A stretch of DNA of 27,873 bases from Promethearchaeota archaeon (GCA_048939245.1 JBHLPR010000028.1:1-27873); one strand, 5' to 3'. Numbered from the stretch's first letter, positions 16,871 through 27,873 are shown. Numbers and translations: made by a program. Notes: generated by a model from the sequence alone, not told the origin.

Positions 16871-17263
16871 TTATTTTGCCAAGCCTTCAGTGAAAGTCTT
16901 GTATGCAGCAGGGTTCATGAGGCTTTTTATCTCATCTGGGTCCGAGGCTTTGATCGTAATCATCCACCCTTCGCCATATGGATCATTATTCACCAGCTCT
17001 GGCGCTTCCTCAAGTTTCTCATTCATCTCAACAACCTCGCCTGAAACTGGTGAAAAAAGCTCTGATGTGGCTTTTACCGAATCAACAGTTCCAAACACTT
17101 CATTCACTTTCACCGCTGTGCCAACAGCAGGCAATTCCACCATAACGACTTCGTGCAATTCTTCTTGAGCATAATCAGTGATGCCCACACGCACGATCCC
17201 GTCTTCTTGACGGATCCATTCGTGTTCTTTCGTATAAAGTAAATCAGCAGGAATCTTGCTCAT
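16871..17263 (-). CDS. gcvH: Glycine cleavage system H protein (lipoyl carrier)
   Basis: YTKEHEW, VGITDYAQ, DSVKAT (lipoyl-Lys), SPVSGEV, VNNDPYGEGW. Confidence 0.96.
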   Translation of the reverse strand: MSKIPADLLYTKEHEWIRQEDGIVRVGITDYAQEELHEVVMVELPAVGTAVKVNEVFGTVDSVKATSELFSPVSGEVVEMNEKLEEAPELVNNDPYGEGWMITIKASDPDEIKSLMNPAAYKTFTEGLAK

Positions 17264-17311
17264 CTCAACAAAACCCCAAATAGTTGGTTATGTTCGCGTT
17301 TACTCGTTCCG

Positions 17312-17325
17312 CTATAAAGGTCTTT
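17312..17325 (-). promoter_or_regulatory. Putative BRE/TATA promoter of gcvH
   Basis: Minus strand AAAGACC-TTTATAG about 50 nt upstream of the gcvH ATG. Confidence 0.45.
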
Positions 17326-17395
17326 AGTTGATTCATTTCAAACAAGATTTCTGAATACGATGAAGACAAACGTGCGACGTTTTCCCGTTCCTTGT

Positions 17396-17636
17396 GGATT
17401 GGGCTTTGGACTTTTCCTTCCTGGTACACTTGTGACCAAGGTGTGTTTAGCCTGAAATTTAGCAGGTTCTAACGCTTCTCATCCCCACACCTGCCCCTTA
17501 TTTAAGGGAATTTCATACTACGCTGGAGAAGCCTTCATGTACGTAGATGCAGTCCTGCCGCTTAACGACTGGTATAATATACATCCAGTCGGGCATACTA
17601 CGGGTATAGCAATTAGCTGTATACACTCAACAATCC
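17396..17636. ncRNA. Candidate structured RNA of unknown family
   Basis: ORF-free. About ten complementary segment pairs, including an end-closing GGATTG/CAATCC helix and two crossing (pseudoknot-type) pairings; see findings. Confidence 0.4.
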
Positions 17637-17644
17637 TTCTCGCC

Positions 17645-17658
17645 GACAAAGTTAAAAC
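17645..17658 (+). promoter_or_regulatory. Putative BRE/TATA promoter of the tRNA-Leu gene
   Basis: GACAAAG-TTAAAA implies a start near 17680 and a leader of about 50 nt. Confidence 0.45.
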
Positions 17659-17740
17659 GCACAGAAGTTAATCATTGCACCAAACCATATGCGGGGGACC
17701 CTTCCGAAGGGGTCTTTGCCGCCATACCGGTGGCGGGGGT

Positions 17741-17761
17741 ATCTACGTGTGTAGACCCCAA
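17741..17761 (+). other. tRNA intron 1, position 8/9 (21 nt)
   Basis: Strict BHB: outer TGGC/GCCA, central GGGG/CCCC, bulges GT^A and AA^A, inner TCTAC/GTAGA. Confidence 0.88.
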
Positions 17762-17786
17762 AGCCAAGCCTGGTTAACGGCGCAGG

Positions 17787-17816
17787 AGTCACCCGTACCA
17801 ACGGGTTGACGGTGTC
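17787..17816 (+). other. tRNA intron 2, position 30/31 (30 nt)
   Basis: Relaxed BHB: central CGCA/GGTG (3 of 4 pairs), bulges GG^A and TC^A, strong inner hairpin GTCA-CCCGT/ACGGG-T-TGAC. A 31/32 register gives the same spliced product. Confidence 0.78.
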
Positions 17817-17823
17817 ACTCAAG

Positions 17824-17844
17824 ATTTAACCAGGTTTATGAGAC
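17824..17844 (+). other. tRNA intron 3, canonical position 37/38 (21 nt)
   Basis: Central CTCA/TGAG, bulges AG^A and AC^A; outer helix is the anticodon stem. Confidence 0.9.
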
Positions 17845-17875
17845 ATCCTGTCCGGCAGCGGTTCGAGGGTTCGAA

Positions 17876-17902
17876 AGATCCGCGCACTGCGAGCTCCGAA
17901 AT
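17876..17902 (+). other. tRNA intron 4, position 59/60 (27 nt)
   Basis: Outer GAGGG/CCCTC (T stem), central TTCG/CGAA, bulges AA^A and AT^T, inner GA/TC. Confidence 0.9.
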
Positions 17903-17930
17903 TCCCTCCCCCCGCACCACTTCAGCATCG

Positions 17931-17940
17931 TTACCTTTTT
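17931..17940 (+). terminator. Putative T-tract terminator after the tRNA
   Basis: TTACCTTTTT begins 12 nt after the CCA. Confidence 0.35.
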
Positions 17941-17995
17941 GACTGGGATTTCCCTAGCTTCTATAACGGATTTCCGTCTCCACGGGGCCATCTAA

Positions 17996-18589
17996 ATGCT
18001 ACACGTGGTTTATTTAATGCACCCAAGTGGGGTCTGTCTGCTAGACCAAAAATTTGGAGAAATAGAACTTGACTCTACATTAGTTGCTGGTTTCTTTTCT
18101 GCTATACGAGAATTTGCTCGAATGATATCAAAGGGAAAGGGTGATGCGCGGATTGTGGAGATGGGTGAATTCTACATTACCTACGCCGCTGGAGATTACA
18201 TCGTTATAGCCGCCGTGGTTGATAAGGAAGATAACCGACTTCAAGTCCTTCAAGCACTGGATAAGGTGATTGAACGATTTTCGGATCGATTCGAAGACAC
18301 TCTCAAATCCTGGGATGGGAAACTCGTCTTTTTCTCTTTCACACCTGAATTGAATAAAATGCTCAACAACGGATTTATCGGCAAAGATGACGCTCCTCAA
18401 CCAAAGCTTAAACGCGGCCTTCCCAAACTCATGGTGAAACTAGGGCAAATTAGCGAAGTAGAATACAATGTCGCTAAACAGTGCGATGGTAAGAAAACCC
18501 CGCCAGAAATTGCTGAAACCGTAGGGCTTCCTCAAGATGATGTGGAAGTACTGTTGTATCGGCTCAATAAACTCGATTTAATTGAATAA
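17996..18589 (+). CDS. Longin-like domain protein with C-terminal winged helix (Asgard eukaryotic-signature type)
   Basis: N-terminal VYLMHPSGVCLL...DSTLVAGFFSAIREF...IERFSDRF...WDG..VFFSF pattern typical of Asgard longins. C-terminal CDGKKTPPEIAETVGL...VEVLLYRL..LDLIE HTH. Confidence 0.75.
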   Translation: MLHVVYLMHPSGVCLLDQKFGEIELDSTLVAGFFSAIREFARMISKGKGDARIVEMGEFYITYAAGDYIVIAAVVDKEDNRLQVLQALDKVIERFSDRFEDTLKSWDGKLVFFSFTPELNKMLNNGFIGKDDAPQPKLKRGLPKLMVKLGQISEVEYNVAKQCDGKKTPPEIAETVGLPQDDVEVLLYRLNKLDLIE

Positions 18590-18604: not shown

Positions 18605-19264
18605 TTACTCGCTAGCCTCCTGTAATACACCCATAGCAATCAAGCCAAGAGCCAACAAGACCATCATAGGTGCAAAGACTATTCCAAGCGCAGGAAGAAC
18701 CGCTTGAAGGACCCGTCCCCCATAGTACACGAGAAACCCTGTGCCTAACAAGAAGTTACTTGTACGGAGTTGCCCCGTTAACTGAATTCCGATGTAAAAG
18801 AATAGGGCTGGTAACACAATCACGTACAAGGGAAGGATAGCATAATTTGAAATGATATAACCAATGGTTAAAATTCCCCCTGTAAGGGGCGGGGGCCAGA
18901 ACAACCACGACAAAAACAAAATGAGAACCGCAATAATAAGTGGAGGGGAGGAAATAAGGACAATCTGCCACAACTTCCGTTCAAGAATCTGATACGCTAG
19001 CGCAAGAAATACAGTAAAGATCGCTAACCACGAGGTCACGGTCGCTAACCGCCACCAAATTTCAATGTGTGCATAGAAATCCCAGACTAAATAGAAGATG
19101 CGTCCTACACCAAGGAGCAGGAAAAACAATCCAAACCCTAGGTGGAAGGGATTTCGCTTCTCACGATACCGAAAAGCAAGGAAATAGATGAACAGCAGAA
19201 AGAAGTATCCGACAATAACATACCATAAACCGATAATCACCGAATCAAGCTCAGTAAATAGCAT
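18605..19264 (-). CDS. Seven-transmembrane protein of unknown function
   Basis: About seven hydrophobic segments, no soluble domain. ATG 19264 after GGTG is preferred over the track start 19321. Confidence 0.75.
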   Translation of the reverse strand: MLFTELDSVIIGLWYVIVGYFFLLFIYFLAFRYREKRNPFHLGFGLFFLLLGVGRIFYLVWDFYAHIEIWWRLATVTSWLAIFTVFLALAYQILERKLWQIVLISSPPLIIAVLILFLSWLFWPPPLTGGILTIGYIISNYAILPLYVIVLPALFFYIGIQLTGQLRTSNFLLGTGFLVYYGGRVLQAVLPALGIVFAPMMVLLALGLIAMGVLQEASE

Positions 19265-19367
19265 TTTAACACCCTCATTCCGCATGGAAATATTACTAAC
19301 CAATCTTCTTTTTTTCTCCATTTAAGGCTGCTGTTCGCAAATTCCGTTTCATCGAACTCGGTAAGAG

Positions 19368-19399
19368 GAAAATGTTTTTACCTTTACAAATGTAAAGGT
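19368..19399 (+). promoter_or_regulatory. BRE/TATA of the hdr-kor-mvh operon with an adjoining perfect inverted repeat (putative operator)
   Basis: GAAAATG-TTTTTA, then ACCTTTACA-AA-TGTAAAGGT (19380-19399). SD GGGGTGA at 19417-19423. Confidence 0.6.
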
Positions 19400-19427: not shown

Positions 19428-19979
19428 GTGATCGATCGTCGGATAATTAATGGGTCAAAAATTGATAGTGAGCTTGCTGAAGAGATGGAGAAAGCTGGCC
19501 TTGATCGGATCCGTTCATGCATCCAATGTGGAACGTGCACGGGTTCTTGTCCTTCTGGTCGCCGAACAGCTCTTAGAACGCGACAACTCATTCGAAAAGC
19601 TATTCTCGGATTTAGAGATGAGGTGTTATCTGATCCAGACCTTTGGTTGTGCACAACTTGTGGTACCTGTACTGATCGTTGTCCTCGTAAAATTGATGTC
19701 ACCGAAGCCATTCTATATTTGCGAAATCTTTCTTGCCAAGCTGGATATATGAAGCCCGAACATAAGGGCGTTTCTCACAAACTCATTGAGACCGGTCATG
19801 CGGTCCCGATTGATAATGAGAAATGGAGCAAAATGCGTGAAGAACTTGGCCTTCCTCCATTACCACCTACCACTCACTCCTACCCCAAGGCGGTCAAAGA
19901 AATCCAACACATCATAAAGAAAACTGGCTTTGATAAACTGGTCAATTACAAGGAGAACAAAAAGGATGGAAAAACATAG
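19428..19979 (+). CDS. hdrC: Heterodisulfide reductase subunit C
   Basis: CIQCGTCTGSCPSG and LWLCTTCGTCTDRCPR (two 4Fe-4S motifs); TGHAVP...PPTTH tail. Confidence 0.95.
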   Translation: MIDRRIINGSKIDSELAEEMEKAGLDRIRSCIQCGTCTGSCPSGRRTALRTRQLIRKAILGFRDEVLSDPDLWLCTTCGTCTDRCPRKIDVTEAILYLRNLSCQAGYMKPEHKGVSHKLIETGHAVPIDNEKWSKMREELGLPPLPPTTHSYPKAVKEIQHIIKKTGFDKLVNYKENKKDGKT

Positions 19980-20859
19980 ATATAGTTTCTTTCTCGGCTG
20001 TGTAATTCCCAATCGTCTCCCCCAAATTGAAGCCGCTACTCGCCTCGTTGCACCAAAACTCGGTATCGAACTCGTGGAAATGAATGGGGCCTCGTGCTGT
20101 CCTGCACCAGGTGTCATCAAATCGTTTGATAAAAACACGTGGCTTGCCATCACCGCCCGTAATATTGCCATTGCAGAAGAAAATGGTTTGGACATCTTTG
20201 TTCTGTGCAATGGCTGCTATGGCACATTGATTGCAGGGGTACACGATCTAAAGGATCCTGAAACCCGAAAACGGGTCAACAAGATTCTGAAAGGAACTGG
20301 ACATCAAGTCAAGGGCACAATAACAGTGAAGCATCTAGTTGAAGTTCTTTGGATGGATATTGGTAAAGACGCTATCGAAGAAACCGTGATTAACCCGATT
20401 GATGCTCGATTTGCCATCCATGTTGGCTGCCATCTGCTAAAACCCAGTGATATCCGACCCTGGGGGGTAGTCGAAGATTTTACTCTAGTTGATGACCTAG
20501 TCGAGCTGGTTGGTGGAACCACGGTTGATTACAAACTTAAAGACATGTGTTGTGGCGCTGGTGGTGGGTTACGCTCAGCTGAGTTGGAAGTCTCTTTGGA
20601 TATGGCCCGAGAAAAATTTGAAGCCATGAAGCAAGCAAAGGTAGATGCCCTCATCAATGTCTGCAACTTTTGTCACCTCCAATTTGATCTGGGTCAGGTT
20701 CAGGTGAACAAGCAGTTCGGAACCGACTATCAGATTCCCGTTCTCTATTACACCCAACTGCTCGGTCTAGCACAAGGGTTCACACCGAAACAGATGGGAC
20801 TGGACAAGCACTTCATATCTGTTGAACCCTTCCTAGAAAAAATTGGGATGAGCGTGTGA
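19966..20859 (+). CDS. hdrB: Heterodisulfide reductase subunit B
   Basis: Two intact CCG domains: FFLGC/SCCPAPG/CNGC and HVGCH/CCGAGGG/CNFCHLQFD. ATG 19966 follows AGGAG. Confidence 0.96.
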   Translation: MEKHRYSFFLGCVIPNRLPQIEAATRLVAPKLGIELVEMNGASCCPAPGVIKSFDKNTWLAITARNIAIAEENGLDIFVLCNGCYGTLIAGVHDLKDPETRKRVNKILKGTGHQVKGTITVKHLVEVLWMDIGKDAIEETVINPIDARFAIHVGCHLLKPSDIRPWGVVEDFTLVDDLVELVGGTTVDYKLKDMCCGAGGGLRSAELEVSLDMAREKFEAMKQAKVDALINVCNFCHLQFDLGQVQVNKQFGTDYQIPVLYYTQLLGLAQGFTPKQMGLDKHFISVEPFLEKIGMSV

Positions 20860-21152
20860 TGTTGACAAGGCAAGAAAGAAGCCCCATTGTACCAGAGGAG
20901 GAATCCGGAACGAAATATGAGATAGTCGTTAACGAGGATTGGTGCAAGGGCTGTGGTTTCTGCTATACCTTCTGTCCACGTGAAGTGCTGGAAAAATCAA
21001 CAAAATTCAATGCAAAAGGCTACTATCCCCCCGTAGCCACAAACATCGACCGCTGTGTGGGATGCGGTCTTTGCGAAGCTCTCTGTCCGGATTTCGCTAT
21101 CTACGTTGTAGAAAAAGAAGCTAAAACCAAACACGAAAAGGGTGAGAAGTGA
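20856..21152 (+). CDS. korD: 2-oxoacid:ferredoxin oxidoreductase delta subunit (2x4Fe-4S)
   Basis: WCKGCGFCYTFCP...GYYPP...CVGCGLCEALCPDFAI. Confidence 0.9.
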   Translation: MMLTRQERSPIVPEEESGTKYEIVVNEDWCKGCGFCYTFCPREVLEKSTKFNAKGYYPPVATNIDRCVGCGLCEALCPDFAIYVVEKEAKTKHEKGEK

Positions 21153-22300
21153 TGCAGAGAGCGGTTTTAACGGGGGAAATGTTCACACAAGGCGACATCG
21201 CTGCCGCGGAAGGCGCACTCGCTGCTGGCTGCCGCTTTTTTGGTGGGTATCCAATCACACCCGCCACAGAAATCGCTGAGCGCATGGCTTATCGACTTCC
21301 ACGTATAGGCGGACGTTACATCCAAATGGAAGATGAAATCGCCTCTTGCACCGCTGTAGTAGGCGCCTCTTACGCCGGAGTTAAGGCTATGACTGCAACT
21401 TCAGGACCTGGCGTCAGTCTCATGAATGAAACCATCGGACTTGCCGTAATGACTGAAACACCCATGGTTTTAGTTAACGTTATGCGTGGCGGGCCTTCTA
21501 CCGGTCAACCCACCGAAGCCAGTCAAAGCGACATCATGCAAGCCAAATGGGGCAGCCACGGTGATTATGAAATCATTGCACTCATTCCCTCATCCGTCCA
21601 AGAAATGTTTGACCTCACTATCCACGCCTTCAACTTATCCGAACAATTCCGCGTTCCAACCTTTGTCCTAGCAGATGAAATCATTGGACATATGCGCGAA
21701 CGCTTGGTCATTCCACCCGAAGATGAAATTAAAATCGTGAATCGTAAAAAACCGACCGTTCCTCCCGAAGAATATATGCCCTTCAAAGCCGACGAAGACC
21801 TAGTTCCACCTATGGCGACCTTCGGTGATGGCTATCACTTCTATGCCACGGGTCTCACCCATGACGAACGCGGATACCCGGTCATGGACGATGAAACCCA
21901 ACTCGCGCTGGTTCCACGGCTCTGCGACAAGATTCGCAAGAACACCCACAAAATTACCCAAGCCAAGACTACAGAGACCGAAGACGCTGAAACCCTCGTT
22001 GTAGCCTATGGAGGAGAAGCCCGAACAGCAATTCGAGCAATCAAAGATGCACGAGCTGATGGCATGAAAATCGGTCTCTTTCGCCCAATCACCGTCTGGC
22101 CTTTCCCCAAAGAGCAATTGAAAGACGCTGCAGCCACTGCCCAAAATGTGGTCGTTGCAGAACTCAATTACGGTCAAGTGGTGGGCGAAGTAGAACGGGT
22201 CATCCGCAACGAAGTCCCAGTTCATTTAATTCCACGAGTCTGCGGGAGCCCCCATACCCCCGACGAACTCATGAAAGAAATCAGGAGGTGTATTAATTGA
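21149..22300 (+). CDS. korA: 2-oxoacid:ferredoxin oxidoreductase alpha subunit (Kor-type)
   Basis: GYPITPATEI, QMEDEIAS, TATSGPG, RGGPSTGQPT, WGSHGD. Substrate not certain. Confidence 0.92.
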   Translation: MMQRAVLTGEMFTQGDIAAAEGALAAGCRFFGGYPITPATEIAERMAYRLPRIGGRYIQMEDEIASCTAVVGASYAGVKAMTATSGPGVSLMNETIGLAVMTETPMVLVNVMRGGPSTGQPTEASQSDIMQAKWGSHGDYEIIALIPSSVQEMFDLTIHAFNLSEQFRVPTFVLADEIIGHMRERLVIPPEDEIKIVNRKKPTVPPEEYMPFKADEDLVPPMATFGDGYHFYATGLTHDERGYPVMDDETQLALVPRLCDKIRKNTHKITQAKTTETEDAETLVVAYGGEARTAIRAIKDARADGMKIGLFRPITVWPFPKEQLKDAAATAQNVVVAELNYGQVVGEVERVIRNEVPVHLIPRVCGSPHTPDELMKEIRRCIN

Positions 22301-23145
22301 CCGCAACAACCCGCACCACAACTGAAGCCGAACACCCCCTCCTCAACTACATTCGACGTGATCGATTCCCCCATATCTTCTGCAGCGCCTGTGGCATTGG
22401 CACTGTCCTCCAAGCCTTTGCCAATGCCCTTCGCAGCTTAAACTTCGATATGGACCGTTTGGTAGTCATCAGTGGAATTGGGTGCACAGGACGCGCTAGC
22501 GGATACTTTGCAGCCGACAGCTATCATACCACCCACGGTCGTGCCATTGCCTTTGCCTCTGGCGTTAAGGTGGCTAATCCTGAACTAAAACCTGTTGTCA
22601 TAAGTGGTGATGGTGATCTATTCGCTATTGGCGGAAACCACTTCATCCACGCGGCTCGTCGCAACGTCGATATGCTTGTAATCTGTATCAATAACTTCAA
22701 CTACGGGATGACCGGGGGGCAAATGGGACCCACCACACCTGACAATGCCATCACTGTCACATCCCCTGATGGTAATATCGAACACCCATTCAATCTGGTA
22801 AGCGTGGCCGCAGCTTCGGGGGCCGTCTTTGTTGCTCGATGGACCGCGCTTCACGCTCGGCGACTCACCAAATCCATCGAAAAAGCCCTTCAGAAGAAAG
22901 GATTCAAATTCATTGAAGTAATCTCACCCTGTCCCACGTTATACGACCGGTACAATCGCTACGGAACCGGGCTCGATGTCATGAAAAGATACCGCGAAAT
23001 CTCGGTAATCCGCAATTTCACGGATCCAATGAAAGCCGAAATCGACTATCGGACACGGATAGTGTGCGGCGAATTCGTAGACACCGAAAAACCGGAGTTT
23101 ACCGATTTACTCGCCCAGCAATCAGAGAAACTCCACACAAGGTGA
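22297..23145 (+). CDS. korB: 2-oxoacid:ferredoxin oxidoreductase beta subunit (TPP-binding)
   Basis: FCSACGIG, SGIGC, HGRA, GDGD...GGNHFIHA.RRN, NFNYGMTGGQ, SPCPT. Confidence 0.92.
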   Translation: MTATTRTTTEAEHPLLNYIRRDRFPHIFCSACGIGTVLQAFANALRSLNFDMDRLVVISGIGCTGRASGYFAADSYHTTHGRAIAFASGVKVANPELKPVVISGDGDLFAIGGNHFIHAARRNVDMLVICINNFNYGMTGGQMGPTTPDNAITVTSPDGNIEHPFNLVSVAAASGAVFVARWTALHARRLTKSIEKALQKKGFKFIEVISPCPTLYDRYNRYGTGLDVMKRYREISVIRNFTDPMKAEIDYRTRIVCGEFVDTEKPEFTDLLAQQSEKLHTR

Positions 23146-23154
23146 TGTAGCAAA

Positions 23155-23718
23155 ATGGTACGGACAGAAATTCGACTCGGTGGATTGGGCGGACAAGGAA
23201 TAATCAAATCCGCCGTTATCATCGGAGAAGCCGCGTCCATTCACGACGGGAAAGAAGCCGTCCAAACCGCTTCCTATGGCCCTGAATCCCGTGGCAGTGC
23301 CTGTAAAGCTGAAGTCATCATTTCCGATACCCCAGTTGATTACCCCCTAGTCCTTACGCCCGACGTTATGGTGGCATTATCCAACGACGCCTTCCACAAA
23401 TACAAAGCTGATCTCAGCGAAGGCGGCATCGCAATTATTGATTCAGATTTGGTGAAAGCGGGAAAAATTAAGGCAGGTGTGCAGGTGTATCATGTAGCAG
23501 CTGCGGCAACCGCTCATCAAGTTCTCAAAAATCCCCTGGTCACCAATGTTGTCATGCTTGGTGCCTTCACAGCGATCACCAAAGCTGTCACCCCAGAAGC
23601 AATGCGTAAAGCCATTGCCAACGCCTTTCCCAAATACTCTGAACTCAACCTCCGTGCTTTCAACGAAGGTATGCAACTCGGACAAGAAGCCATGGAACAA
23701 TCAACTCCAAAGAAGTGA
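23155..23718 (+). CDS. korC: 2-oxoacid:ferredoxin oxidoreductase gamma subunit
   Basis: GLGGQG, SYGPESRG, NVVMLGA, N.RAFNEG. Confidence 0.92.
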   Translation: MVRTEIRLGGLGGQGIIKSAVIIGEAASIHDGKEAVQTASYGPESRGSACKAEVIISDTPVDYPLVLTPDVMVALSNDAFHKYKADLSEGGIAIIDSDLVKAGKIKAGVQVYHVAAAATAHQVLKNPLVTNVVMLGAFTAITKAVTPEAMRKAIANAFPKYSELNLRAFNEGMQLGQEAMEQSTPKK

Positions 23719-25697
23719 ACCCCTCTATGTCAACAGAACAACCTAAAATCGGTGTCTTCATCTGTCACTGCGGCTCCAACATAGCAGGCGTCATCGACAT
23801 CTCTAAACTCATCGAATATGCCGCCACGCTCCCTAACGTCGTCGTCGCAGAAGACTACCGCTACATGTGCTCCGATCCAGGACAAGACCTCATCAAAGAA
23901 CGCGCCCGTGAAAAAGGCCTTAATCGTGTCGTTGTCGCCGCATGTAGTCCAACACTCCACGAACCCACCTTCCGCCGGGTCCTCGAAAGTATCGGATTAA
24001 ACCCGTTCTTCTTTGATATGTCCAACATCCGAGAACACTGCTCCTGGGTCCACACGCACGAAGAAGAAGCTGCCCTCGAAAAAGCCAAAGACCTCGTCAA
24101 AATGGCAGTCGCCAGAGCCGCAGAACTTGAACCCTTGGAACAAAAAGAAGTCGACGTTAAAGCCAAAGTCATGGTTGTGGGTGCCGGTATTGCAGGCATC
24201 CAAGCCGCCCTTGATATTGCAGACGCTGGCTACAAGGTCTATCTGGTTGAAAAAGAACCCAGCATCGGCGGACATATGGCCCAACTCGACAAGACCTTTC
24301 CCACGCTTGATTGCAGCAGTTGTATCCTGACCCCGAAAATGAGTTTGATAGGGCAACACCCCAACATCGAGTTGATGACCTATAGTGAGGTTCGAGAAGT
24401 GAATGGCTATGTTGGGAATTTCACGGTGAAAGTAGAAAAGAAACCGCGTTATGTCATCGAGGACAAATGCACAGCCTGTGCAGATTGCCTTGAAGTCTGC
24501 CCGGTCAATGTTCCCGATGAATTCAATGCAGGGCTGGGTTGGCGGAAAGCCATTTACATTCCCTTCGCTCAAGCTGTACCGAACGCCTACGTTATAGACA
24601 CAGAACACTGCTTAGGTATGACCCCCATTGCTTGTGGCAAATGTAAAGACGCCTGTGAAGCTGAAGCCATTGACTATGAAATGAAGTCCGAAATTGTGGA
24701 ACTGAATGTTGGCGCAATTATTGTCACCACTGGGTTCCAACTGTTTGATGCCTTGAGACAACTCGAATACGGCTATGGCAAGTATCCCGATGTCATGACC
24801 AATCTTGAAATGGAACGCATGTTAAATGCAGCCGGACCTACCGATGGGAAGATTGTCCGTCCCTCCACGATGAAGAAACCCAAACACATCGCCTACATCC
24901 AATGCGTCGGTTCCCGTAATGAACGCTACAATCCCTACTGTTCACGGGTCTGTTGTATGGCTGCACTGAAGCAAGCCCGACAAATACGCGAAAAATACCC
25001 CGACATTAAGGTAACTATTTTCTACATCGACATGCGCGCCTTTGGAAAGGGCTATGAAGAATTCTACGAAACGAGTGCCCGACAATATGGTGTTAACTTT
25101 GTCCGTGGACGGGTCTCCGAAGTGCGCGGATCATTCGAATCTGATCGCCTTGTCGTCCGTGGCGAAGACACATTTCTCGCTGAACCCCTGGAAACCGAAG
25201 TCGACATTGTCGTTCTCTCTTGTGGCATTGAAGCACCCAAAGACCAAGCGGACTTGGCTCGAATTCTCGGCATCCAACTCAGCGCCGATGGCTTCTTCTT
25301 AGAAGCCCACCCCAAACTCCGCCCGGTTGAAACCAACACTGATGGCATCTTCATTGCCGGGACCGCTCAAGGACCCAAGGATATCCCCGATTCTGTTGCG
25401 CAAGCTAAAGGTGCCGCGGCAAGTGCCCTCGCCATGGTCGCCGCAGGGCACGTCAGAATACAGCCCTACGCTGCAGTGGTTAACGAAGAGCTTTGTGCCG
25501 GCTGCGGCATCTGTGAAGCCTCCTGCCCCTACGGCGCTGTCAAAGTCGTCGACAATGTTGCGCAAGTCACCGAAGCTCAATGCAAAGGCTGTGGTACCTG
25601 CGCCGCTGCCTGTCCCAATGAAGCCATCGCCCCTCAACACTTCACCATGGAACAAATCATCGCCCAACTGGACGCCCTCTTTCAGGAAGCGAAATAA
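23715..25697 (+). CDS. hdrA: Heterodisulfide reductase subunit A (electron-bifurcating flavoprotein)
   Basis: [37 protein letters not shown], inserted ferredoxin, LEMER, CVGSR..CSRVCC..ALK, C-terminal 2x4Fe-4S. Start is GTG 23715 or ATG 23727. Confidence 0.97.
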
Positions 25698-25699
25698 CC

Positions 25700-26128
25700 A
25701 TGACCAAAAAGAACTGGGAACCCAAAATCGTCTGCTTCGCTTGCCGCTGGTGTAGCTACGCTGGCGCAGACATGGCGGGAACCTCGCGAATCCAATATCC
25801 CCCTAACGCCCGCGTTATCCGTGTTAACTGCAGCGGACGGGTGGACCCGCAATTCATCTTACGTGCCCTTAAACTCAAAGCCGATGGCGTACTCATCGCC
25901 GGCTGCCATTTCGGCGACTGCCACTATGCTACCGGCAACTACCAAACCTCCCGCCGTATTGCGCTCCTCAAGGAGTACCTTAAAGAACTCGGTTTAGAAC
26001 CCGAACGACTTCGCCTTGAATGGATTTCCGCGGCTGAAGGTCAAAAATTCGCGGAAACCATGAAGTCATTTGTAAAAGAGATTAAGCTTTTAGGACCCAA
26101 TCCGCTCACAAACGGAGGAACCGACTAA
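25700..26128 (+). CDS. mvhD: Mvh hydrogenase delta subunit (2Fe-2S)
   Basis: [35 protein letters not shown]. Confidence 0.96.
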
Positions 26129-26129
26129 C

Positions 26130-27068
26130 ATGCCAAAGCCCACCCTTGCCGTCGAAACTCTTAGCATCTGCTCAGGTTGCGAAATCGCCATCCTTGACTT
26201 ACACCAAGCCCTCCCCGGCGTACTAGAGGCCATTGACCTCAAATACATCCAAGTCCTCATGGACTTCCGCGAACCCCCCGAAGAAGGCGTCACCGTTGGA
26301 TTCGTCTCCGGTGGCGTCCGCAACGAAGAACAAGTCGAACTCTTACACAAAATGCGCGAACGCTCACAGATTCTCGTCGCCTTCGGTGCCTGCTCAGCTT
26401 TCGGTGGCATCCCTGGGCTAGCCAACCTACATACCAAAGATGCACTTCTCCAAGAAGTCTATGTCGACACGGTAAGCACCGTCAACCCCAAAGGCATCAT
26501 CCCCCACAAAGTCGTTCCACCCCTCCTCGAAGAAGTGCACCCTATTAGCGATTTCGTCAAAGTCGACTACATTCTGCCAGGCTGCCCCCCACCACCTAAA
26601 CTCATCGCCGAACTCGTCACCTGTCTCCTGGAAGGTAGAGAATTTCGCCTCGAACCCAAAACTGTCTGCGACCAATGCCCTCTCACCAAAGACGAAAAGA
26701 GCGTCACCAACTTCCTCCGCTGGGGCACCAAAAAAATCGACCCCGAACGCTGCCTCCTCGAACAAGGCTACCAATGCCTCGGACCCGTCACCCAAGGCGG
26801 CTGCGAAGCCCGCTGCCCCACCGCTCTAGCTCCCTGCCGCGGCTGCTTCGGACCCACCGAAAACGTCCACGATCAAGCCGCTAAAATGATCGGCGCCATC
26901 GGATCTGTCGTCATCCAAGACCCCACCAAAGCCCCAGACCCCGAACTTATTGTGAAGGAAATCCCCGACCTCGTCGGCACCTACCTCCGCTTCAGTCTCC
27001 CCGCCTCCACCTTCAAAAAAGCCCACCACATTAACCCCATTAAAACGAAAAAAGGTGCAAAAGCATGA
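26130..27068 (+). CDS. mvhG: Group 3c [NiFe]-hydrogenase small subunit
   Basis: CSGC, GACSAFGGIPG, PGCPP, CDQC, CLLEQG..CLGPVT.GGC.A.CP....CRGC. Confidence 0.94.
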   Translation: MPKPTLAVETLSICSGCEIAILDLHQALPGVLEAIDLKYIQVLMDFREPPEEGVTVGFVSGGVRNEEQVELLHKMRERSQILVAFGACSAFGGIPGLANLHTKDALLQEVYVDTVSTVNPKGIIPHKVVPPLLEEVHPISDFVKVDYILPGCPPPPKLIAELVTCLLEGREFRLEPKTVCDQCPLTKDEKSVTNFLRWGTKKIDPERCLLEQGYQCLGPVTQGGCEARCPTALAPCRGCFGPTENVHDQAAKMIGAIGSVVIQDPTKAPDPELIVKEIPDLVGTYLRFSLPASTFKKAHHINPIKTKKGAKA

Positions 27069-27873
27069 GTCAAAAAGGAAAAACCATCAAAATCGCCCCG
27101 GTCACCCGCGTCGAAGGACATGGCGCCATCACCATCCAACTCGACCCCAAAGGCAACGTCGCCGATGCCCACTTCCACGTTATGGATGTCCGTGGCTTCG
27201 AACTCTTCATGCAAGACCGTCCAGTCGAAGAATCGCAACGCATTGCCACTCGCATGTGCGGCATCTGCCCGGTCAGCCACCATCTCGCTTCCGCCCATGC
27301 CGCTGATGCCCTCTATGGCGTCGATCCCCCTAAGACCGCCAAAATGCTTCGTGAACTCATGCACCATGGCCAAATGATCCACTCCCACACCCTCCACTTC
27401 TTCTACCTGGCTGCACCTGACATTCTCTTGCCTGGCACCGGTCCTGAAGAACGCCATGTCATCACGCTTCTCCAAAAAGACCCCGCAATGGTGGGCAAAA
27501 TCATCCGCCTCCGCCAAGTCGGTCAAAACCTCATCGAAGCCACCGGAGGACGCGCCATCCACCCGGTCACCGCCCAACCCGGCGGCATCTCTAAACCCAT
27601 CACCGAGGACACCCGAACTGATCTTCTCAAACAAGTTGAAGAAGCCCAAGACCTCGCCACCGAACTCCTTGGAGTCGTTCGTCCTAGCCTTGACAAAGTC
27701 GAACTCCTCGACGAACTCCAAACCGGCTACCTCGGCCTCGTCACTCCCAAAGGTGAACTCGAAGTCTACCAAGGCAACCTCCGCATGATCGATTCCAAAG
27801 GCAAAAAACTCGCCGAATTCCCCGTCAAAGACTACCTCAAATACATCGGCGAACACGTCACCGACTACTCCTA
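27065..27873 (+). CDS. mvhA: Group 3c [NiFe]-hydrogenase large subunit, 3'-truncated by window edge
   Basis: Not in ORF track. MSQKGKTIKIAPVTRVEGHG...RGFE...TRMCGICPVSHHLAS...IHSHTLHFFYLAAPD. ATGA overlap with mvhG. Confidence 0.95.
   Translation, partial: MSQKGKTIKIAPVTRVEGHGAITIQLDPKGNVADAHFHVMDVRGFELFMQDRPVEESQRIATRMCGICPVSHHLASAHAADALYGVDPPKTAKMLRELMHHGQMIHSHTLHFFYLAAPDILLPGTGPEERHVITLLQKDPAMVGKIIRLRQVGQNLIEATGGRAIHPVTAQPGGISKPITEDTRTDLLKQVEEAQDLATELLGVVRPSLDKVELLDELQTGYLGLVTPKGELEVYQGNLRMIDSKGKKLAEFPVKDYLKYIGEHVTDYS

Follow-up and report, generated by a model that had tools for sequence, protein, structure and literature searches.

An archaeal Mvh-Hdr operon enclosing the genes of a Kor-type 2-oxoacid:ferredoxin oxidoreductase in Hermodarchaeota, an H2-fed variant of a published Hdr-centred module

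In methanogens, the Hdr-Mvh/Vhu assembly of heterodisulfide reductase (Hdr) and [NiFe] hydrogenase binds a CO2-fixing client, formylmethanofuran dehydrogenase (Fwd), through polyferredoxins (PMC13518236). A reductive tricarboxylic acid cycle cluster of tubeworm symbionts and Thioflavicoccus mobilis consists of frdB, frdA (tfrBA), hdrC, hdrB, korD, korA, korB, korC, hdrA, flxD, flxC, flxB, flxA, aclB and aclA (Rubin-Blum et al. 2019, PMC6315080, supplementary table), and it was proposed that Flx-Hdr passes electrons directly to the 2-oxoglutarate:ferredoxin oxidoreductase (OGOR) and to thiol:fumarate reductase (Tfr) (PMC6315080). For Pseudoclostridium thermosuccinogenes, PMC7282089, citing Koendjbiharie and van Kranenburg 2019, reports a "succinic acid operon" in which Flx-Hdr is joined by a novel fumarate reductase. 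Here we analyse a stretch of 27,873 nucleotides (the window, which is all of contig C115) that ends in ten co-oriented genes, hdrC-hdrB-korD-korA-korB-korC-hdrA-mvhD-mvhG-mvhA, in which the four kor genes of a 2-oxoacid:ferredoxin oxidoreductase (OFOR) stand inside an Mvh-Hdr gene set. The host is an uncultured Asgard archaeon of the Hermodarchaeota, the nearest public records being Hermodarchaeota metagenome-assembled genomes (MAGs), and its own genome is a 2.52-Mb MAG of 122 contigs that is 88% complete. The published description of the Hermodarchaeota gives hdrABC, mvhADG and kor as separate entries, with no word on their nesting (PMC8163825); no published account of an Mvh-Hdr-Kor operon was found in the literature searched, the coverage of which is incomplete.

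Both the window and the tubeworm-symbiont cluster have hdrC-hdrB-korDABC-hdrA as their core, and in both an MvhD-type connector and a module for electron input come next. The input is the [NiFe] hydrogenase MvhGA, and hence H2, in the archaeon, whereas it is FlxCBA and reduced nicotinamide adenine dinucleotide (NADH) in the symbionts; TfrAB is encoded on contig C109 rather than by genes adjacent to the cluster together with aclAB; citrate synthase was not detected; and the host is an Asgard archaeon instead of a gammaproteobacterium. A partial reductive branch is more likely than the full cycle in this host. All six subunit types of the methanogen MvhAGD-HdrABC complex (PDB 5ODC, 8RVU, 9SFI and 7BKB; PMC13518236) are present, and the likeness to the Hdr-Mvh-Fwd assemblies extends to the concept of a low-potential branch wired to a CO2-fixing enzyme, read here from the genes alone. 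Unlike those assemblies, the operon has no Fwd context, the loci that are complete, L004 and L013, lack an mvhB gene for a polyferredoxin behind mvhA (in both the unit stops at mvhA and an opposite-strand gene comes next), and the candidate acceptor is a thiamine pyrophosphate (TPP)-dependent OFOR instead of the tungsten or molybdenum enzyme Fwd. Neither McrA (PF02249) nor ComA (PF02679) was found in the 88%-complete genome, a search that did not extend to other routes to coenzyme M (CoM) or to the synthesis of coenzyme B (CoB). The host is a non-methanogen, as a first-pass annotation of the window had thought probable; because McrA and ComA are missing, CoM-S-S-CoB is not assigned as the substrate and the enzyme is called Hdr by its architecture. 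In the P. thermosuccinogenes operon, as far as it is summarised in PMC7282089, Hdr-type bifurcation is likewise linked genetically to the reduction of fumarate, the second product being electrons at the level of ferredoxin, and a relative of the window operon in the Heimdallarchaeota group has a fumarate reductase directly after hdrB; the P. thermosuccinogenes operon differs in being NADH-driven and bacterial, whereas the window operon has Kor and no fumarate reductase. With KorABCD (KGOR; OGORs 8YS5 and 6N2N) the operon shares the delta-alpha-beta-gamma set with its TPP and iron-sulfur motifs, and it differs in the nesting of kor within an hdr-mvh operon and in a substrate specificity that is not fixed by the models. 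The operon is an H2-fed archaeal variant of the published Hdr-centred module and is neither a new category nor unique to this genome. The Hdr-Mvh-OFOR interpretation of the first-pass annotation finds partial support: the unit is real, conserved and tightly coupled. The idea is not new in kind, the same hypothesis having been published in 2019 for the same core order with an NADH module (PMC6315080).

Our assignments by Pfam and NCBIfam agree with that annotation for every open reading frame (ORF) of the operon (Table 1). As in the soluble HdrABC of methanogens, two [4Fe-4S] motifs are present in HdrC and two CCG motifs, for noncubane [4Fe-4S] clusters, in HdrB; both proteins exceed the scores that the curated equivalog models of CoB-CoM heterodisulfide reductase subunits demand. 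HdrA is full-length, since its residues 6-658 align with residues 8-655 of 8rvu, covering the flavin adenine dinucleotide (FAD) site, the N-terminal domain and the inserted and C-terminal ferredoxin domains; it scores below the NCBIfam HdrA cut-offs because these models include a fused MvhD or are lineage-specific. The presence of MvhD (FlpD), MvhG and the N-terminal RxCGxCxxxH nickel-iron site motif of MvhA identifies a hydrogenase module of the MvhADG (group 3c) type. Every readable cofactor motif is intact, in keeping with the first-pass annotation, with the qualification that the C-terminal DPCxxC motif of MvhA lies outside the window: a probable C-terminal piece of 163 residues with DPCLSC is found at the start of contig C52 (G000:C52:3-491), about 45 residues between the two pieces being unassembled. 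The motif is present in the L004 orthologue, whose full-length MvhA has 7t2r_D and the Mvh subunit 5odc_F (429 bits) as its best PDB matches. The delta, alpha, beta and gamma subunits of Kor are complete with the TPP motif and iron-sulfur cysteines, as expected of a four-subunit OFOR. KorA is nearest to PDB entry 1yd7 and then to the OGORs 8ys5 and 6n2n, and among characterised enzymes the closest solved structures to this Kor are OGORs.

Table 1. Genes and upstream element of the operon in the window
Feature	Position	Strand	Evidence
Conserved upstream block, A/T-rich TATA-like stretch and perfect palindrome CCTTTACAAATGTAAAGG	19365..19398	+	upstream alignment, window and 12 related loci
hdrC, heterodisulfide reductase subunit C	19428-19979	+	TIGR03290 210.5 bits, above cut-off 160; two CxxCxxCxxxC motifs ([4Fe-4S])
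hdrB, catalytic subunit, two CCG domains	19966-20859	+	TIGR03288 396.8 bits, above cut-off 345; two C..CC..CxxC motifs
korD, delta subunit, 2x[4Fe-4S] ferredoxin-like	20856-21152	+	best NCBIfam OGOR_delta NF042987, 73 bits, below cut-off 125; two cluster motifs
korA, alpha subunit	21149-22300	+	PRK08659 579 bits, above cut-off 411; POR_N and PFOR_II domains
korB, beta subunit (TPP, [4Fe-4S])	22297-23145	+	TPP_enzyme_C; GDG...NN motif, CxxC; nearest PDB OGOR beta 8ys5_C, 211 bits
korC, gamma subunit	23155-23718	+	POR domain PF01558; PRK08537 204 bits, below cut-off 235
hdrA, FAD and iron-sulfur electron-bifurcating flavoprotein, methanogen type	23715-25697	+	854 bits to HdrA 8rvu; NF040770 985 bits; GxGxxG; 28 Cys
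mvhD, [2Fe-2S] connector between hydrogenase and HdrA	25700-26128	+	FlpD PF02662 187 bits
mvhG, [NiFe] hydrogenase small subunit	26130-27068	+	Oxidored_q6; best NCBIfam VhuG 277 bits, below cut-off
mvhA, [NiFe] hydrogenase large subunit, N-terminal 269 residues, cut by contig end	27065-27873	+	NiFeSe_Hases; RMCGICPVSH

The ten genes are tightly coupled. Their nine junctions, from hdrC to mvhA, are a 14-nt overlap, GTGA, GTGA, TTGA, a 9-nt gap, GTGA, a 2-nt gap, a 1-nt gap and ATGA, exactly the overlaps and gaps of at most 9 nt reported at first, and several internal starts have a purine stretch resembling GGAGG/GGTGA ahead of them. Ahead of hdrC, GGAAAATGTTTTTACC-TTTACAAATGTAAAGG is kept across the aligned upstream regions while the flanks diverge, and this block is the probable promoter/operator of the operon, judging from its conservation. 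Its position solely upstream of hdrC is consistent with a single regulated promoter, which leaves room for internal promoters within the coding sequence. The palindrome core TTTACAnnTGTAAA occurs once in the 2.52-Mb genome (about 0.35 expected), and with this single occurrence its use as a regulon marker was rejected. A sigma-70 promoter and terminator scan returned sites no commoner than in shuffled sequence, its bacterial consensus not being applicable to an archaeon.

Synteny was surveyed around the 80 best KorA loci, one genome per species, with the neighbours marked by tblastn. The identical ten-gene order with near-identical spacing recurs in 13 other Hermodarchaeota genomes, which are independent assemblies from several studies, and in one Bathyarchaeia genome (L025), so that kor between hdrB and hdrA is neither peculiar to this assembly nor chimeric, the two possibilities that the first-pass annotation had named as counting against it. 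When linkage is defined as hdrA or mvhD on the same strand within 3 kb of kor, 29 of the 59 loci with enough flank to judge are linked, spread over several archaeal phyla and a few bacteria, and a hydrogenase is present in 20; none of the nine Bacillota loci shows the linkage. The order korDABC-hdrA-mvhDGA is found in other Bathyarchaeia, a Heimdallarchaeota genome, a Thermoproteota MAG labelled Kor4, and MAGs labelled Nitrososphaerota and Thermoplasmata. A second Bathyarchaeia group has hdrA-mvhD-korDABC, some Bathyarchaeia and bacteria have korDABC-hdrCBA-mvhD, and in three lineages (L078, L054 and L063) hdrC-hdrB is placed after mvhA, with the hydrogenase protease gene hycI ahead of hdrC in L078 and L054. 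The korC-hdrA junction is common to Asgard archaea, Bathyarchaeia, other Thermoproteota, Thermoplasmata and at least one bacterial locus. A functional Hdr-Mvh-OFOR module is the most economical reading of this phylum-spanning synteny.

Several relatives carry altered forms of the cluster. In the Heimdallarchaeota group (L054:10001-21149 and L119:5987-9704) a co-directional array continues as korDABC-hdrA-mvhDGA, a second hdrA, hycI, hdrC, hdrB, an iron-sulfur protein of 237 residues and a flavoprotein of the fumarate reductase/aspartate oxidase type of 553 residues, and its HdrB scores nearly as well as SdhE, the CCG-type subunit of fumarate reductase. This fumarate reductase extension gives independent support for the gene set. 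In Thorarchaeota (L026:11135-15456 and L022:11119-14385) the cluster has loosened: between korDA and korBC stand 1-4.5 kb of mostly opposite-strand genes, for a small GTPase of the Ras family, an unknown protein and an enzyme like acetyl-CoA synthetase, and hdrCB is found 1.6 kb upstream, beyond two genes of the opposite strand. An Atribacteria locus (L050:2577-3965) has korD and korA in one frame as a delta-alpha fusion, followed by korB, korC and hdrA.

In the KorA tree the Hermodarchaeota clade stands beside Thorarchaeota, Bathyarchaeia and Methanomethylicia, apart from a branch made up of the unlinked Bacillota; hdr/mvh linkage is concentrated in one part of the tree and absent from the Bacillota branch. 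A quick HdrA tree places the Kor-adjacent, Mvh-linked HdrAs of Hermodarchaeota and Bathyarchaeia in a clade of 18 (SH-aLRT 98), outside of which fall the three other HdrA paralogues of the genome. The trees agree, and on this phylogenetic evidence KorA and HdrA share their history. The genome also holds a second, unlinked korDABC (G000 C16:12227-14739; 44-50% identity), a second hydrogenase-Hdr set at a contig end (hdrA-mvhD-hdrA-mvhD-mvhG-mvhA, G000:C16:74190-79975) and an hdrA-mvhD-hdrCB unit on contig C70. Since separate copies of korDABC and of hdr/mvh thus exist elsewhere, the nested operon is a dedicated extra set, passed on as a cassette. Two genomes labelled Thorarchaeota (L002, TM2M.154) and Odinarchaeota (L010, H3S.115) carry the Hermodarchaeota-type operon and are nested in the Hermodarchaeota clade in both trees, and their labels look inconsistent. 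HdrA identity to the window follows the expected order, about 91% in close relatives and 82% in the deep-branching L012 and L013, whereas that of MvhA is 68-72% in L003, L005, L006, L007 and L011 and 76-78% in L012 and L013; apparently the hydrogenase genes have either been swapped among members of the Hermodarchaeota clade or evolve faster there.

We propose, with a probability of about 0.45, that the operon encodes an H2-oxidising, bifurcating MvhADG-HdrABC module with its own Kor-type OFOR, which drives reductive carboxylation while the disulfide is regenerated by Tfr. MvhAG would oxidise H2 and MvhD would relay the electrons to HdrA and its FAD. From there the high-potential electron would travel through HdrC to the noncubane clusters of HdrB for reduction of the disulfide, which TfrAB would regenerate in converting fumarate to succinate. 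The low-potential electron would pass from the ferredoxin domains of HdrA to KorD, KorB and the TPP, either directly or by a tightly channelled ferredoxin, and Kor would reductively carboxylate succinyl-CoA to 2-oxoglutarate with CO2, or another acyl-CoA to its 2-oxoacid. The net result would be that H2 powers both reducing steps of the fumarate-to-2-oxoglutarate branch. This branch needs one disulfide-forming Tfr step and one ferredoxin-level Kor reduction per 2-oxoglutarate, which would match the 1:1 output of Mvh-Hdr bifurcation. The chemistry of the module may be reversible.

Other genes of the host bear on this proposal. A search for Tfr, prompted by the published tubeworm-symbiont parallel, found TfrB (489 bits, above the cut-off of 385) adjoining TfrA (695 bits, cut-off 718) on contig C109, and SucC is present elsewhere in the genome. 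Citrate synthase (PF00285) was found neither in this genome nor in 10 other Hermodarchaeota (0 of 11), a result that does not exclude a Re-type enzyme; in a control set of 14 model organisms only Methanocaldococcus jannaschii was without a match. With no citrate synthase in the 11 genomes, an anabolic reductive route to 2-oxoglutarate would be needed, which tilts the interpretation away from amino-acid fermentation. In Methanococcales, 2-oxoglutarate reportedly comes from the reductive branch.

A number of observations weigh against the proposed reductive module, one of them being the room just noted for a Re-type citrate synthase. TfrA and TfrB were not found in several cluster-bearing genomes, including the deep-branching Hermodarchaeota L012 and L013 and the Bathyarchaeia L025, and in none of the 20 Tfr loci fetched from 19 cluster-bearing genomes is Tfr adjacent to kor or mvh; across genomes, an obligatory role of Tfr beside the cluster is not supported. 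OGOR models give the best named match to KorD and to KorB and the second-ranked one to KorA, all below cut-off, and the only subunit that passes a curated cut-off is KorA, by PRK08659, a generic model for 2-oxoacid:acceptor oxidoreductase alpha subunits, so 2-oxoglutarate specificity is not established. A Rosetta-stone search for KorC-HdrA fusions among longer proteins returned KorC-KorB and KorC-ferredoxin fusions and no Kor-Hdr fusion, which is a weak negative. KorD features specific to the Hdr linkage were looked for and rejected, as the N-terminal extension, the inter-cluster spacer of 25-30 residues and the C-terminal tail all follow clade. The remaining points concern the direction of electron flow. 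Cultured Asgard archaea are described as syntrophic, H2-producing amino-acid fermenters, which favours the opposite direction. Two Methanomethylicia loci (L041:9992-15277 and L044) read korA-korB-korC-mvhD-mvhG-mvhA, lacking hdrA, and have neither korD nor another ORF for a CxxCxxCxxxC ferredoxin on the cluster strand; this is possibly a direct OFOR-hydrogenase unit with MvhD replacing the delta subunit, which, being free of bifurcation, would run more easily toward H2 and reads more naturally as a 2-oxoacid-driven hydrogenase.

These last points belong to an explanation in which the same proteins run oxidatively, Kor oxidising a 2-oxoacid in the fermentation of amino acids or other organic acids, HdrA confurcating its low-potential electrons with those of a thiol and Mvh releasing H2. 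H2-driven reductive carboxylation and confurcation to H2 were the two directions put forward in the first-pass annotation, and they are the right alternatives. Every step is reversible in principle, the Methanomethylicia unit without HdrA would be exergonic solely toward H2 under standard conditions, and the Hermodarchaeota description puts kor among the peptide-fermentation genes (PMC8163825). Yet no thiol-generating reaction that would need such an outlet was identified, the second, unlinked korDABC could serve catabolism with free ferredoxin, the lack of citrate synthase in the 11 genomes calls for a reductive route to 2-oxoglutarate, and the published sister cluster has a reductive tricarboxylic acid context. 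We regard the oxidative direction as unlikely for this operon.

The reductive module could take the form of one physical Mvh-Hdr-Kor supercomplex of all ten proteins, which would be the first non-methanogen counterpart of Hdr-Mvh-Fwd, with H2 electrons bifurcated directly into a TPP-dependent carboxylase through KorD as the contact and with fumarate reduction as the driving force, by way of a thiol/disulfide shuttle or an attached fumarate reductase. Synteny and shared phylogeny are what would speak for an Hdr-centred supercomplex here, and we consider it a somewhat doubtful extension. Its converse is that there is no dedicated complex, Mvh-Hdr and Kor being co-expressed for a common soluble ferredoxin pool and their interleaving being inherited history. 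Neither interface evidence nor fusion proteins were found, hdrCB may stand at the start or the end of the cluster in different phyla, and the Thorarchaeota, in which hdrCB, korDA and korBC are set apart by opposite-strand genes, show that the enzymes can work without co-transcription. Such an arrangement fits poorly with kor lying between hdrB and hdrA with 4-nt overlaps, with a korC-hdrA junction kept in distant archaea and at least one bacterial locus and the same order in Gammaproteobacteria, with the common history of KorA and HdrA, with the spare copies of both systems kept separately in the genome, and with the methanogen precedent, in which Hdr-Mvh binds its low-potential acceptor enzyme directly (PMC13518236). 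A mere sharing of ferredoxin is improbable on this balance.

An assembly or binning artefact that joined foreign kor genes to an hdr-mvh contig, which the rise in guanine plus cytosine (GC) content from 0.44 in hdrC to 0.56 in mvhA (genome mean 0.442, standard deviation 0.029) and the contig end inside mvhA might suggest, is refuted by the same order, spacing and GC rise over the flanks in all 13 independently assembled related genomes, and a chimera or horizontal transfer artefact was rejected on the same ground. From korA to mvhA (21149-27873; also in L001-L013) GC is 0.50-0.56 and the GC of third codon positions reaches 0.64, in a genome of 0.44 GC; possible causes are an ancient transfer or the codon bias that goes with high expression.

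The first 17 kb of the window hold archaeal-type replication and translation genes (Cdc48, PCNA, primase, GINS, aIF2-alpha, AglB, SRP54 and aIF5A). The gene gcvH (16871-17263, minus strand) lies 2 kb upstream of hdrC, a position kept in the complete loci L004 and deep-branching L013. Lipoyl-GcvH was considered as an Hdr substrate and found unsupported: as it is the sole GcvH of the genome, and GcvP and GcvT are present on other contigs, it is probably the ordinary H protein of glycine cleavage. The approximately 730 bases between gcvH and the next gene (17264-17995) contain only ORFs of at most 56 residues and, like the whole window, have no Rfam match at gathering thresholds; they may hold an RNA not yet described or the remains of a gene. 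Then follow genes for a soluble protein of 197 residues (17996-18589, plus strand) and a multi-pass membrane protein of 238 residues (18605-19321, minus strand), neither of which matches Pfam or NCBIfam; ORFs of similar size, order and strand stand directly upstream of the operon in L004 and L013, a positional likeness rather than a sequence comparison.

The role of MvhADG-HdrABC in organisms without CoM-S-S-CoB is a standing puzzle of anaerobe bioenergetics, and the operon names candidate partners: a Kor-type OFOR would accept the low-potential electrons, and thiol:fumarate reductase, in this genome at least, would supply the disulfide. If the proposed reductive module is true, it would be a case, at the level of genes, of hard-wired, H2-powered synthesis of 2-oxoglutarate without citrate synthase, and the principle of a bifurcating Hdr docked to a CO2-fixing client would extend from formylmethanofuran dehydrogenase to the OFOR family. 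The linkage of kor, hdr and mvh occurs in Asgard archaea, Bathyarchaeia, other Thermoproteota and Thermoplasmatota, and a supercomplex, if it exists, would explain why methanogen-type Mvh-Hdr is retained in so many archaea that are not methanogens, some of them relatives of the eukaryotic ancestor. The hypothesis lends itself to direct testing and offers a concrete answer to what Mvh-Hdr does in non-methanogens; it matters for the question of whether Asgard archaea consume or produce H2, and hence for syntrophy models of the origin of eukaryotes.

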